DNA of 4,335 nucleotides from a virus (lineage: Duplodnaviria; Heunggongvirae; Uroviricota; Caudoviricetes), in the IMG/VR virus record IMGVR_UViG_3300011952_000033. One strand, 5' to 3'. The stretch's first letter is position 1. Every line of letters begins with the position of its first letter. Below the pieces are notes generated by a model, which was not told the DNA's origin, did no database searches, and saw only the letters and a program-made list of their open reading frames with translations. Position numbers and translations under genes: made by a program. This document shows, piece after piece, positions 2,121 through 4,335 of the stretch.

Positions 2121-2614
2121 TGCTGACCCCACAAACAGATTTCACGCTCAATCTCACGACGAGTCATGAGACCTTTCCATTGCTTACCGCCAGCATATGT
2201 CCAGCGACGTAGCTGATCACATGCGCCTTTGATATCGCCCTGGTTTATTTTGCGAAGAAGCGTCGATGTTCTGAAATTGCCAGCGCCCACGTTGTAAACG
2301 AACGAGTAAAGAGCGCCGCGCGTTGTTTCCGGTATATCGACTTTGATGTACGGGTTAATTTGTCTGGCGACCGTGGCAAGGTCTTTATTCAAGAGTGTTT
2401 TGCATTCTGCTTTGGTATACGTTTTACCGAGCATGATGTCTTTTCCTGTATGCCCGTGACATACAGTCCATACACCAACAATATCTTTGTATGGTATGTA
2501 GCTGACACCTTCCAGACCATCGTTACCACTTGGGCCAGTGATTAACACTGATGCTATAGCAATTGCTCCGCCACCAATAGCAGCAGCAACGACTTTTCGT
2601 AATGATGGAGGCAT
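2117..2614 (-). CDS. R: SAR endolysin (phage-21 R-type lysozyme, GH24 family)
   Basis: 165-aa ORF, ATG at 2612-2614. N-terminal weakly hydrophobic Gly/Ala-rich signal-arrest-release segment ([20 protein letters not shown]) followed by a lysozyme domain ([25 protein letters not shown]...). Essentially matches phage 21 R as recalled. Start overlaps S stop (TAATG). Confidence 0.9.
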
Positions 2615-2829
2615 TATTCACCTCTCGCAGCCTTGCGCTTATCTTCTTTAATCTTGAAATAAAGGTTTGTCAGGTACGTCAGCAGGCCAAATACCAGACT
2701 ACCCAGCACACCGATTGCAGCCCACTGTGACGGAGTTACTCTATCGAGCAACTGTAAAAACCAGTAGCCGGCACTGCCTGCGGAGGTGCCGTAGGCAATG
2801 CCTGTTGAAATTTTGTCCATGGATTTCAT
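2614..2829 (-). CDS. S: Pinholin / antiholin, phage-21 S-type with dual start (71-aa form from Met1 at 2827-2829; 68-aa form from Met4 at 2818-2820)
   Basis: Track ORF 2614..2886 starts at an upstream GTG, but the ATG at 2827-2829 is preceded by GGAGGTGAGG (SD). From there the product is [71 protein letters not shown]: two TMDs and a charged C-terminus, matching phage 21 S (S71/S68 dual-start MKSM motif) as recalled. Stop TAA at 2614-2616. Confidence 0.9.
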
Positions 2830-2928
2830 AGCCTCACCTCCGCACGGAACGGATGGCATAGTTATTATGTGTAGGCTTTCAGACACATCAATCAGAGCCT
2901 TAATTGATATATATGCTGGAGACGATGC

Positions 2929-2955
2929 AATATAAAAAGCTCGCCGTAGCGAGCT
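2929..2955 (-). terminator. Rho-independent terminator between lipoprotein genes and holin
   Basis: On the minus strand: AGCTCGC-TACG-GCGAGCT (perfect 7-bp GC-rich stem, 4-nt loop; plus 2938-2955) immediately followed by TTTTATATT (plus 2929-2937). On the plus strand the hairpin is followed by an A-rich run, so it is oriented for minus-strand transcripts. Confidence 0.6.
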
Positions 2956-3080
2956 AATAAAATGTATTTCTCTGATATTATGTTTATTTGTATTAGCTCA
3001 GACTTGACATCACAGGTTTCGTATATAGAACATCATCAAATCTGTCAGTTTGCTATGAATGAGATATAGTAATTGAAGAG

Positions 3081-3476
3081 CTAACCTCGCATGTCAAAGC
3101 CAGATTTCTGAAAATCTCTGTAGACTTCCGGATTGTTGAAGGCCGGAAATTTGGCTTTATGAGCTGCGGACTTTATCGCTTCGCAATAGGCTTTATCACC
3201 GTTACTGGTAGATATTTTTAACGCCGTGCCATCCTGAGAGAATTCCATATGCAACCTGCATTTTTTCCCTTTCCAGTTATGCGGCTCATCAAGTTTGGCA
3301 TTAATTGCAGCTCTGATTCCCCGCGCTTGCGCCCCCCATTCATCCTGATCATCCCAGCGTCCTGAACTGCAACTACCTGTAGCAGTAGTTTTGTGGCAAT
3401 CTGAAGGGTGTAAAGGTGTGCATCCCGCAACAAAACCGACCCAAAAAGTCAACATAACGATTTTCTTTAATCCCAC
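3081..3476 (-). CDS. Putative outer-membrane lipoprotein with divergent TolA-C-terminal-domain-like region (paralog of the 3627-4055 gene)
   Basis: 131-aa ORF. GTG start at 3474-3476 preceded by GAGGAG at 6-nt spacing (plus 3484-3489). Signal peptide with lipobox MGLKKIVMLTFWVGFVAGC, T at +2. The C-terminal approx. 85 aa (GKKCRLHMEFSQDGTALKISTSNGDKAYCEAIKSAAHKAKFPAFNNPEVYRDFQ) share the motif skeleton and two conserved Cys with the neighbouring gene and with TolA domain III. Stop TAG at 3081-3083. Start codon choice (GTG vs internal ATG at M8) is uncertain. Confidence 0.75.
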   Translation of the reverse strand: MGLKKIVMLTFWVGFVAGCTPLHPSDCHKTTATGSCSSGRWDDQDEWGAQARGIRAAINAKLDEPHNWKGKKCRLHMEFSQDGTALKISTSNGDKAYCEAIKSAAHKAKFPAFNNPEVYRDFQKSGFDMRG

Positions 3477-3626
3477 TTCTTGCTCCTCAATCCATTAAAA
3501 TCTCAGCAATAGTAGTTGTTACGTCCGCCACTGGCTCAGAGCTGACTATCCGCTAAATTTAGCTCAGTGCCGTAGCTGTGTCAGAACAAACCTAAGCCGA
3601 AACCGTTTATTACAAAACAATAAATA

Positions 3627-4055
3627 TCAGGGTTTAAAATCCAGCACCCCATTTTGAAATACTTTATATACTTCCGGCGAAGGGGGGGCAGGTATATCAG
3701 CATTCTTTATCGCATTCATCGCTTCACGACATAAATCGAGGTCTCCACTTTCTCTTTTAACCTCCAGTAGAAGGCCATTCGGGGCCATATGCATTCTCAG
3801 TGTACACTCTTTTCCTGAATACTTACTCGCATCCCCGAACTGTTTTTCGATGGCGCTCTTGATTTGATGGGCATACAGACGGATATCCTCACTAACATCA
3901 GAAGTACGTTCAGATGAACTCACATACTGTGTCTCTATTGCTTTATCGGAGTAATATGATGTACGGTCATGATAATTTGTCGATACAGCATCAGTGCACC
4001 CGATAATAATCCCACTAATAATCAACGTAAGAATTGATGCGCTACGAAAACCCAT
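3627..4055 (-). CDS. Putative outer-membrane lipoprotein with TolA domain III-like C-terminal domain (TolA mimic)
   Basis: 142-aa ORF. ATG at 4053-4055 preceded by GAGGA (plus 4059-4063). Signal peptide with lipobox MGFRSASILTLIISGIIIGC, T at +2, then a Ser/Thr/Tyr-rich acidic linker. C-terminal approx. 83 aa (YAHQIKSAIEKQFGDASKYSGKECTLRMHMAPNGLLLEVKRESGDLDLCREAMNAIKNADIPAPPSPEVYKVFQNGVLDFKP) align without gaps to my recollection of E. coli TolA C-terminus (YAGQIKSAIESKFYDASSYAGKTCTLRIKLAPDGMLLDIKPEGGDPALCQAALAAAKLAKIPKPPSQAVYEVFKNAPLDFKP), roughly 60 percent identical by eye, both Cys conserved. Confidence 0.85.
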   Translation of the reverse strand: MGFRSASILTLIISGIIIGCTDAVSTNYHDRTSYYSDKAIETQYVSSSERTSDVSEDIRLYAHQIKSAIEKQFGDASKYSGKECTLRMHMAPNGLLLEVKRESGDLDLCREAMNAIKNADIPAPPSPEVYKVFQNGVLDFKP

Positions 4056-4084
4056 TTTTCCTCACATATGTCATATAGTAAAGG

Positions 4085-4114
4085 ATTATATATACCGTTG
4101 TTTTGGACGCTCAA
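4085..4114 (-). promoter_or_regulatory. Candidate sigma70 promoter for the lipoprotein pair
   Basis: Minus strand reads TTGAGC (plus 4109-4114), 18-nt spacer, TATAAT (plus 4085-4090); alternatively TATATA with a 16-nt spacer. It sits about 30 nt upstream of the lipoprotein ATG at 4055 in an AT-rich context. Sequence-only prediction. Confidence 0.4.
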
Positions 4115-4172
4115 ACAGCGAATCAGATCAAATAAAACGCACATTTGTTAACATTTACACAAAGTCTGCGTG

Positions 4173-4193
4173 GGATATTCTGAAAGAATATCC
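4173..4193. promoter_or_regulatory. Perfect 9-3-9 inverted repeat GGATATTCT-GAA-AGAATATCC, candidate operator or RNA hairpin
   Basis: Read directly from sequence at 4173-4193. No flanking U-tract on either strand, so not a canonical intrinsic terminator. Lies about 60-85 bp upstream of the candidate -35. Confidence 0.35.
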
Positions 4194-4335
4194 ATAATGT
4201 GGAGAGAATCTATTGAAGTGCATGGTGCCGGGTGCCTCCCGGTGCTCTGGCCGAACTGGCAAACTCCAGAGCGGTGACCTTTAGACTCCGAGCATCGCAC
4301 GATAGTTACGATGCCAGTTCTCCGCGTGCGCTAGC

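Follow-up and report, generated by a model that had tools for sequence, protein, structure and literature searches.

Why should a prophage carry a gene whose product ends in a domain of the host envelope protein TolA, and what could such a product do? The question is raised by a 4,335-nucleotide stretch of caudoviricete DNA, IMG/VR record IMGVR_UViG_3300011952_000033 (hereafter the window), in which an earlier note, made from the letters alone, had picked out an open reading frame (ORF) of 142 codons. We refer to this ORF as gene A, and to a second, related gene found directly downstream of it as gene B. The analysis described here identifies gene A as a functional prophage cargo gene for a predicted outer-membrane lipoprotein that carries domain III of TolA (TolA-III) and is not itself a TolA. 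The best-supported mechanism for its product is that of a competitive decoy for invaders that depend on TolA, a proposal to which we give about an even chance.

Results

A predicted lipoprotein with TolA's C-terminal domain

Gene A has an ATG start and an intact frame of 142 codons, with its own Shine-Dalgarno (SD) sequence, signal peptide and lipobox. The N-terminus, MGFRSASILTLIISGIIIGC, contains one basic residue, a hydrophobic core and a lipobox, I-I-G-C, that places the cysteine at position 20; Thr follows at +2 and Asp at +3. The Asp associated with avoidance of the Lol pathway is not at +2, where Thr stands, and although this is a sequence rule only, we infer that the product is lipidated and located at the outer membrane.

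The Pfam profile PF06519 (TolA C-terminal), whose cut-off is 25 bits, matched the C-terminal part of the protein with a score of 82.6 (E 2.4e-23), over residues 49-140 and profile positions 4-96 of 96. A phmmer search of all PDB chains aligned residues 55-142 without gaps to E. coli TolA domain III (E 5e-28; chains of 1s62, 3qdp, 2x9a and 1tol), with 52 of the 88 residues (59%) identical to TolA 334-421. Both cysteines are aligned, Cys84 and Cys109 corresponding to Cys363 and Cys388 of TolA, and the tail PPSPEVYKVFQNGVLDFKP aligns with PPSQAVYEVFKNAPLDFKP of TolA through the shared pattern PPS..VY.VF.N..LDFKP. Gene A is thus a member of the TolA C-terminal domain family, far beyond chance. The same Pfam scan returned only one other family, TonB_2, with 23.6 bits against a cut-off of 22.

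An AlphaFold2 (AF2) model built on 66 relatives had a predicted local distance difference test score (pLDDT) above 90 for residues 53-142, with residues 1-52 disordered and the signal-peptide and lipobox region of low confidence. The best match of this model in a Foldseek search of the PDB was E. coli TolAIII, chain 2x9a_B (from the complex of IF1 g3p with TolA), with a root-mean-square deviation (rmsd) of 0.5 Å over 88 columns and a template modelling (TM) score of 0.96. The next matches were 3qdr, 3qdp and 1tol, the TolAIII structures together giving rmsd values of 0.5-2.0 Å (E 3e-12), and TonB structures were also present in the list. The AF2 and Foldseek results place gene A within the TolA-III fold, α-α-β-β-α-α-β with a conserved disulfide.

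The earlier note had described the domain as a close copy of host TolA domain III, aligned without gaps over some 83 residues and sharing both cysteines and the terminal stretch from PPS to LDFKP, and had seen it as joined, through a short Ser/Thr/Tyr-rich linker, to the signal peptide of a lipoprotein (IIGC as lipobox, Thr at +2), in place of the TolA anchor and domain II. The profile and model comparisons reported above, of the kind that it proposed, agree with this description in nearly every particular: the shared cysteines and tail are in the alignment, the signal peptide can be read from the translation, and the linker is disordered in the model. The ungapped stretch is 88 residues long, however, and the term close copy holds for the protein (59% identity, rmsd 0.5 Å) but not for the DNA, which has no nucleotide similarity to tolA.

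Gene A is nevertheless not a TolA. In place of the inner-membrane anchor it has what is predicted to be a cleavable lipoprotein signal peptide; in place of the Ala/Lys-rich helical domain II, a disordered tether of 33 residues joins Cys20 to the domain; and instead of lying in the tol operon (ybgC-tolQRA-tolB-pal-cpoB) it is found between the Q gene and the lysis genes of a prophage. The only NCBIfam matches of gene A were the TolA equivalog models, which align with it solely through their last 94-98 positions (profile 293-386 of 387). NF007065 gave 107.8 bits against a cut-off of 213, and TIGR02794 gave 75.6 bits against 59.45, through its C-terminal quarter only; these scores account for the RefSeq name 'TolA'.

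An intact gene under purifying selection

Comparison of gene A with its variants gave ratios of nonsynonymous to synonymous substitution (dN/dS) of 0.26-0.35 for the gene as a whole, with values of 0.09-0.30 for the domain, and the tether evolves faster than the domain (dN 0.39 vs 0.13), so that the gene is under purifying selection. Full-length variants at 66-91% identity retain the lipobox, which is always kept, as IVGC and TTGC. When the DNA encoding the domain was used in a blastn search (word size 11) of 5,426 complete E. coli genomes, each of which contains tolA, host tolA was never matched; 897 of the genomes (~16%) were matched, and all those among the matches listed were of prophage type. 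A recent capture from host tolA was considered and rejected, there being no nucleotide similarity between the two. On these sequence grounds gene A belongs to an old lineage.

The PGAP/RefSeq annotation of gene A is that of a pseudogene, 'tolA, incomplete, missing N-terminus', of 261 nt (for example in NZ_CP033250.1, L002:8628-8888). The label arises because the TolA equivalog models match only through their C-terminal quarter, and it is a systematic artefact of annotation that hides an intact lipoprotein gene of 142 codons in hundreds of genomes.

Conservation of the docking surface

TolA-III is a hub that binds its partners by β-strand addition. The g3p-N1 domain, colicin N and the N-terminus of TolB dock on strand β3 (residues 415-421) and helix α2 of TolA, and colicin A docks on strand β2 (375-380), with contributions from Lys368, Lys379 and Lys396 (PMC4339652, PMC3365938, PMC7391070). 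In gene A the residues Leu417-Asp418-Phe419-Lys420-Pro421 of E. coli TolA are all identical, as are 11 of the 16 residues of α2, including Tyr340. The colicin A strand reads LLEVKR in gene A and LLDIKP in TolA; Lys379 and Lys396 are kept, and Lys368 is replaced by His. Across 53 lipoprotein relatives, Tyr340, Asp418 (41 of 53) and Phe419 (48 of 53) are among the most conserved positions. In TolA the changes D418P/K420P, whose equivalents in gene A would be D139P/K141P, abolish the binding of g3p and colicin N.

A different pattern is seen at Tyr353, the residue called 'Tyr-352' in genetic studies of the TolB interaction (PMC2707214). It is Gly in gene A, Lys in a variant and Asp in gene B. Of 45 full-length TolAs 34 retain it, compared with only 13 of the 53 lipoproteins, counts in which kinship is not accounted for. 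The loss of Tyr353 hints at relaxed binding of TolB by gene A; TolAIII itself binds TolB with a Kd of 4-40 µM.

A second TolA-III lipoprotein

Gene B encodes a diverged TolA-III protein of 131 residues, 29% identical to gene A, and PF06519 matches it with 54.6 bits. Its lipobox, V-A-G-C, places the cysteine at position 19, again with Thr at +2. The gene starts with GTG at 3476, preceded by an SD sequence, GAGGAG, at 3483-3488, 6 nt before the GTG. The start given by RefSeq (Met8) drops the basic n-region, and the GTG start gives a proper signal peptide, MGLKKIV...VAGC. The top PDB fold matches of gene B were E. coli TolAIII; these came from a single-sequence model of low confidence (pLDDT 60), which we use only as supporting evidence beside the Pfam match. 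Orthologues of gene B, 88% identical, are carried by ~600 E. coli and Shigella plasmids, including pO157 and IncI/IncF plasmids.

A mobile cargo block ending in the holin gene

The setting is that of a prophage, as the earlier note had it, with the Q antiterminator upstream and the holin, endolysin, Rz/Rz1 and trkG genes downstream. Its structural reading of gene A has held up; what it missed were the second paralogue, the cargo block shared with the holin, the family on plasmids and chromosomes, and the dissimilarity to tolA at the DNA level.

Gene A is carried by 80 IMG/VR prophage loci, in 72 of which the protein is identical and in eight of which it is 99% identical. In blastn comparisons, similarity to the window starts exactly at 4244/4245 in all loci long enough to show it, and at least three unrelated upstream sequences join there; in ~40 of the 80 loci it ends at 2613, the junction of the holin (S) and endolysin (R) genes. 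On these boundaries we conclude that genes A and B travel together with the holin gene as a single mosaic unit. Phage mEp460_ev081 and RefSeq chromosomes have the A-B pair placed after the Q antiterminator and before the holin, and because of this position it is assigned to the late transcription unit. The cargo genes A and B have a G+C content of ~41-42%, compared with ~49% for the neighbouring lysis genes. A promoter consensus scan gave seven sites against 3.4 ± 1.5 in shuffled sequences, the best of which, at 4085-4114, is just upstream of gene A.

Variants of gene A with 84% and 95% nucleotide identity occupy the position in which Stx phages carry stx, and gene B is absent there. In these loci, on E. 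coli chromosomes (NZ_CP027371.1, L093:3339-3767; NZ_CP010213.1, L094:3341-3769), the order is Q, a methylase, tRNA-Ile/Arg (in one also Thr and Gly), gene A, a nanS-p-type esterase and the holin.

Two observations concern the DNA just upstream of gene A. A motif, TTACTATAT(G/C), is present on the minus strand at 4068-4081, between the predicted -10 and the SD sequence; TTTACTATAT is invariant even in a gene A variant whose upstream region is otherwise unrelated, and an 86%-identical copy of the motif is found at 3059-3072, just past the stop codon of gene B. The repeated motif could have a regulatory function or be the scar of a recombination. At its far end the window has 91 bases (4245-4335, ending GCTAGC) that had no match in the 5,426 complete E. 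coli genomes, 72,556 plasmids, the 80 IMG/VR loci or the Shigella locus, and are either a rare mosaic junction or an artefact of assembly or construction.

Relatives on phages, plasmids and chromosomes

When 1.84 billion cluster representatives were searched exhaustively with HMMER, 333 relatives were obtained, and lengths and lipoboxes were surveyed in the best 147 of these clusters. Seventy of the 147 are 100-175 residues long; 46-48 of the 70 have a lipobox, and an ordinary signal peptide is present in several others. Asp is not found at +2 in any of 46 lipoprotein relatives, and all are therefore predicted to be sorted to the outer membrane. In a rough neighbour-joining tree, drawn without support values, most of the lipoproteins stand apart from full-length TolAs; by identity, the domain nearest to that of gene A, its own variants excluded, is E. 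coli TolA.

The only sequenced phage that encodes A or B is mEp460_ev081. PHROG 5772, of 'unknown function', to which the two proteins belong, was the sole match to a phage family, and a Foldseek search of the BFVD viral structures gave no match at E <= 1e-3. Single-protein scans for gene A found near-identical copies only, in the 80 prophage loci and in one GTDB species representative (Shigella flexneri).

On plasmids the family is found in several settings. A B-type gene lies between psiB-psiA-hok and toxB on pO157, and another directly follows a nikB-like relaxase gene on a plasmid whose transfer region is of the IncI type. In Klebsiella, ~300 IncF plasmids encode a 145-residue TolA-III lipoprotein whose gene adjoins that of a thioredoxin-fold protein, a neighbour that is suggestive because of the conserved disulfide of TolA-III. 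On the Klebsiella IncF plasmid pCuAs (L005:4229-5258) the gene for the 145-residue protein comes directly after the thioredoxin-fold gene. A shorter version of 123 residues is encoded, at 99% identity or more, by 379 small ColRNAI Klebsiella bacteriocin plasmids. Its gene overlaps one for a signal-peptide-bearing TonB C-terminal domain of 121 residues (NZ_CP028788.2, L003:4908-5641, K. pneumoniae), and the TolA-III/TonB pair is situated beside, and divergent from, an operon for a colicin-like tRNase bacteriocin, its immunity protein and a lysis protein. The two genes of the pair are annotated merely as 'TolA' and 'TonB family protein'.

The context of three distant relatives was inspected and consisted of chromosomal housekeeping neighbourhoods, or of contigs too short to judge. 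On two metagenome contigs (L086:200-592 and L090:8001-8408) one TolA-III lipoprotein gene is located by cmoA/cmoB/yecN-like genes and the other between clcB-like and osmoprotectant ABC transporter genes.

Discussion

A proposed competitive decoy for TolA-dependent invaders

In the mechanism that we favour, the product of gene A would be lipidated and held at the inner face of the outer membrane, where a flexible tether of ~33 residues would present to the periplasm a structure almost the same as that of TolA domain III. It could not couple to the TolQR motor, because it has neither the anchor nor domain II. Such a protein would sit where the unfolded translocation domains of colicins, and g3p, first emerge into the periplasm, and would occupy the strands with which the translocation domains of group A colicins and the g3p-N1 of filamentous phages engage TolA. 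Invaders bound in this way would not be passed to the real TolA, and the lysogen would be tolerant to those colicins and phages. Gene B, as a diverged paralogue, would probably widen the range of ligands. Both the ligand binding and the protective phenotype are predictions from the conserved domain and its architecture.

The earlier note had suggested a decoy, or a titration of Tol-Pal partners, and the decoy fits the indirect evidence: the β3 edge strand on which g3p-N1, colicin N and TolB dock is identical to that of E. coli TolA, and the lipoprotein relatives are predicted to reach the outer membrane. The strongest circumstantial support for a decoy or tolerance role comes from the bacteriocin plasmids of Klebsiella, on which the TolA-III protein and the secreted TonB domain are copies of the docking modules of both bacteriocin import routes. 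Relatives also lie on conjugative plasmids, B-type genes being neighbours of the nikB-like relaxase and of psiB-psiA-hok; TolA-dependent filamentous phages use IncI and IncF pili as their primary receptors. Levengood-Freyermuth and colleagues reportedly found, in 1993, that TolAIII exported to the periplasm raised colicin tolerance. In the reverse arrangement, in which periplasmic pIII-N1 sequesters TolA, cells become resistant to colicin A and their uptake of phage falls by 4 logs (PMC10424213). Free periplasmic TolAIII also perturbs the envelope, and E. coli then leaks periplasmic proteins (PMC6195910, citing Wan and Baneyx 1998 and Levengood-Freyermuth 1993).

Several points weigh against the decoy. 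Conservation of the docking strand need not mean that ligands are bound, because the strand is also part of the fold. A decoy would also disturb the Tol-Pal system, because TolB binds the same strand, and the change of Tyr353 to Gly is the sole hint that binding of TolB is reduced. The location in the late operon, directly upstream of the holin, endolysin and spanin genes, may mean that the product is mainly made in the lytic phase, when tolerance would be of little use; the predicted promoter of its own, a consensus match only, has one change in the -10 in the 95% variant and is absent from the 84% variant. In other Enterobacterales some distant members of the family stand alone on the chromosome, surrounded by housekeeping genes. 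The family is therefore not exclusive to mobile elements, and a role independent of them is suggested. PADLOC gave no match for A or B. In the open-access literature we found no study of a natural TolA-III decoy or of the function of a phage or plasmid TolA-III, the passing mentions in that corpus concerning host tolA or bare annotation; most subscription papers were outside its scope and an older report, for example on CloDF13-type plasmids, is possible.

A more general proposal is that secreted copies of the TolA-III and TonB docking domains form a widespread and unrecognised 'tolerance immunity' of mobile elements. Prophages and bacteriocin plasmids would use it against foreign Tol- or Ton-dependent bacteriocins, and IncF/IncI plasmids against filamentous phages specific for their pili, with gene A as the E. 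coli prophage representative, tuned (for example by Tyr353 to Gly) to spare TolB. We put this forward tentatively, as a possibility that has less than an even chance of being correct.

Alternative roles

The late location of the genes is also what recommends the main rival, an accessory role in lysis or release, which we consider unlikely. Outer-membrane-tethered TolA-III domains, made from the late promoter shortly before the holin, endolysin and spanin act, would capture the N-terminus of TolB, compete with TolA and block the mobilisation of Pal, producing for a time the leaky, blebbing outer membrane of a tol mutant, with easier disruption and the release of progeny or vesicles. Genes A and B immediately precede S-R-Rz, are oriented as these are and share a block with the holin; TolB binds the β3 edge that is conserved in A (PMC7391070); and periplasmic TolAIII leads to the release of periplasmic proteins (PMC6195910). 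Lambdoid phages lyse efficiently without such genes, however, and a spanin, Rz/Rz1, is present in the window. The A-type variants in the stx slot are several genes from the holin and have no B, and Tyr353, implicated in TolB binding, is the very residue that A, its variant and B have replaced with Gly, Lys and Asp. On the Klebsiella plasmids the homologue adjoins a bacteriocin operon whose last gene is likewise a lysis gene, but is transcribed divergently from it, and the F/I-type plasmid and chromosomal homologues have no lysis context.

A second alternative, which we regard as improbable, is a receptor blocker of the Llp/Cor type, in which the tethered domain would bind a Ton-box- or Tol-box-like strand of an outer-membrane protein, such as a TonB-dependent transporter or porin, from the periplasmic side, lock that protein in one state and so exclude tailed phages or colicins at the receptor. 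The architecture is that of a small outer-membrane lipoprotein of a temperate phage, resembling T5 Llp, which binds FhuA periplasmically (bioRxiv 10.64898/2026.03.26.714494), and the TolA-III fold is related to TonB's C-terminal domain, as the TonB_2 score and the TonB structures in the Foldseek list attest. Yet the domain of gene A is 59% identical to TolA against 13-20% to TonB, and because it is so much closer to TolA a ligand of the TolA type is to be expected; the Pfam scan, moreover, returned TolA and TonB_2 only, and the data name no target.

To a role in envelope fitness we likewise attach a low probability. Here the protein would confer resistance to, for example, bile, detergent or serum by supplementing Tol-Pal, with TolB, CpoB or Pal as its binding partner, and not through any block to invaders. 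That some members are single chromosomal genes in housekeeping neighbourhoods would fit, as would the use of such cargo slots by fitness and virulence genes such as stx and the presence of toxB as a neighbour on pO157. Against this, a domain with no link to TolQR cannot, on the current model, transmit the force needed to mobilise Pal (PMC7391070), and the known effect of free periplasmic TolAIII is to destabilise the envelope (PMC6195910).

That gene A is a non-functional remnant of a captured tolA, as RefSeq annotates it and as the partial-pseudogene flag of PGAP in many genomes would have it, is highly improbable, and we rejected it on the intact ORF with its own SD sequence, signal peptide and lipobox, the dN/dS values well under 1 with a domain more constrained than the tether, the lipobox kept in full-length variants down to 66% identity, the identity of 72 of the 80 prophage proteins and the lack of nucleotide similarity to tolA.

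Relation to known systems and implications

E. coli TolA-III (residues ~334-421; 1TOL, 2X9A, 3QDP/3QDR, 1S62) has the fold, the disulfide pair and the β3 strand LDFKP in common with gene A, which differs from TolA in being prophage-borne, in lacking the SHLS anchor helix, domain II and the coupling to TolQR, and in having a lipoprotein signal peptide and a 33-residue tether. The closest functional analogue of gene A is engineered: a fusion of TolAIII to the RBP signal sequence, reportedly described by Levengood-Freyermuth and colleagues in 1993 and by Wan and Baneyx in 1998, which like gene A is a periplasmic domain III uncoupled from the motor. The engineered protein is artificial, soluble and overexpressed, whereas gene A is natural, single-copy, 41% diverged and predicted to have an outer-membrane lipid anchor.

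Among natural exclusion systems, the architecture of gene A is like that of the outer-membrane exclusion lipoproteins Llp of T5 and Cor of phi80, N15 and HK022. No relation of sequence or fold to these was detected (the Pfam families found were TolA and TonB_2 only), and they act on FhuA, whereas gene A copies a periplasmic co-receptor domain of the host. Exclusion by pIII of Ff phages targets the same interaction in mirror image: there the ligand of the invader saturates the receptor of the host (PMC10424213), whereas the receptor copy encoded by gene A would saturate the ligand of the invader and leave host TolA free. Lambdoid morons, such as stxAB of Stx phages, resemble gene A in their position between Q and the holin. 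The low G+C content of A and B, the mosaic flanks and the promoter-like (10/12) and terminator-like sites on either side of the pair would fit a cargo unit of this kind; the promoter-like site is not kept in the 84% variant. No characterised moron product is related to the cargo carried here. The class of outer-membrane exclusion or tolerance lipoproteins is thus known, and the new element would be a natural member that works through a copied co-receptor domain of the host.

Group A colicins, klebicins, cloacins and filamentous phages all enter by Tol-dependent import, and they are being developed as narrow-spectrum antibacterials or used as tools. If the decoy mechanism is correct, it would represent a new mechanism of resistance to them, masked by annotation as 'TolA' or 'tolA pseudogene'. 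Genes of this kind are present in ~16% of the complete E. coli genomes, on plasmids of the pO157 and IncF/IncI types, and on the small bacteriocin plasmids that clinical Klebsiella pneumoniae often contains. A phage or plasmid would here, as happens rarely, have copied a co-receptor domain of its host, as opposed to modifying or masking a receptor, and the product would provide a natural motor-uncoupled TolA-III with which to probe the mobilisation of Pal by TolB.

Other features of the window

Every gene in the window is on the minus strand (Table 1), and Rfam and tRNA scans of it were empty. From 61 to 2886 it contains an intact lysis cassette, consisting of a P21-type holin, an endolysin and Rz with the embedded Rz1, adjoining trkG. 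This is a Rac-like and complete late region, unlike the deleted one of E. coli K-12.

Table 1. Positions and supporting evidence of features in the 4,335-nucleotide window.
Feature	Position	Strand	Evidence
Gene A, 142-residue prelipoprotein with TolA domain III	3627-4055	minus	ORF, Pfam, PDB phmmer, dN/dS
Gene A, predicted signal peptide and lipobox, residues 1-20	3996-4055	minus	read from translation
Gene A, disordered Ser/Thr/Tyr-rich tether, residues 21-53	3897-3995	minus	pLDDT ~50, no secondary structure
Gene A, TolA domain III, residues 54-142, with Cys84-Cys109 pair and C-terminal β3 strand LDFKP	3630-3896	minus	alignment, model
Gene A, Shine-Dalgarno sequence GAGGA	4059-4063	minus	read from sequence
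Gene B, diverged TolA-III lipoprotein (predicted), 131 residues from GTG	3081-3476	minus	Pfam, fold matches
Conserved mosaic block, A + B + holin	2613-4244	minus	99-100% identity across 80 IMG/VR prophage loci, flanks variable
Candidate sigma-70-like promoter, TTGAGC-18 nt-TATAAT, 10/12	4085-4114	minus	consensus scan, prediction
Terminator-like hairpin, gene B/holin gap	2938-2955	minus	consensus scan, prediction
P21-type holin S, last gene of conserved block	2614-2886 (longest ORF); 2614-2829 (RefSeq start, 216 nt)	minus	Pfam PF04971, 119.9 bits; RefSeq essD
Endolysin	2117-2614	minus	
Rz	1656-2132	minus	
Rz1 lipoprotein, embedded in Rz	1715-1900	minus	
trkG	61-1536	minus	

One of the prophage loci, IMG/VR UViG_2939127364_000004 (L052), has two insertions of ~1.2-1.3 kb, at ~6503-7699 and 8392-9720, one in the A-B gap and the other in the gap from B to the holin. 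These are probably insertion sequences.

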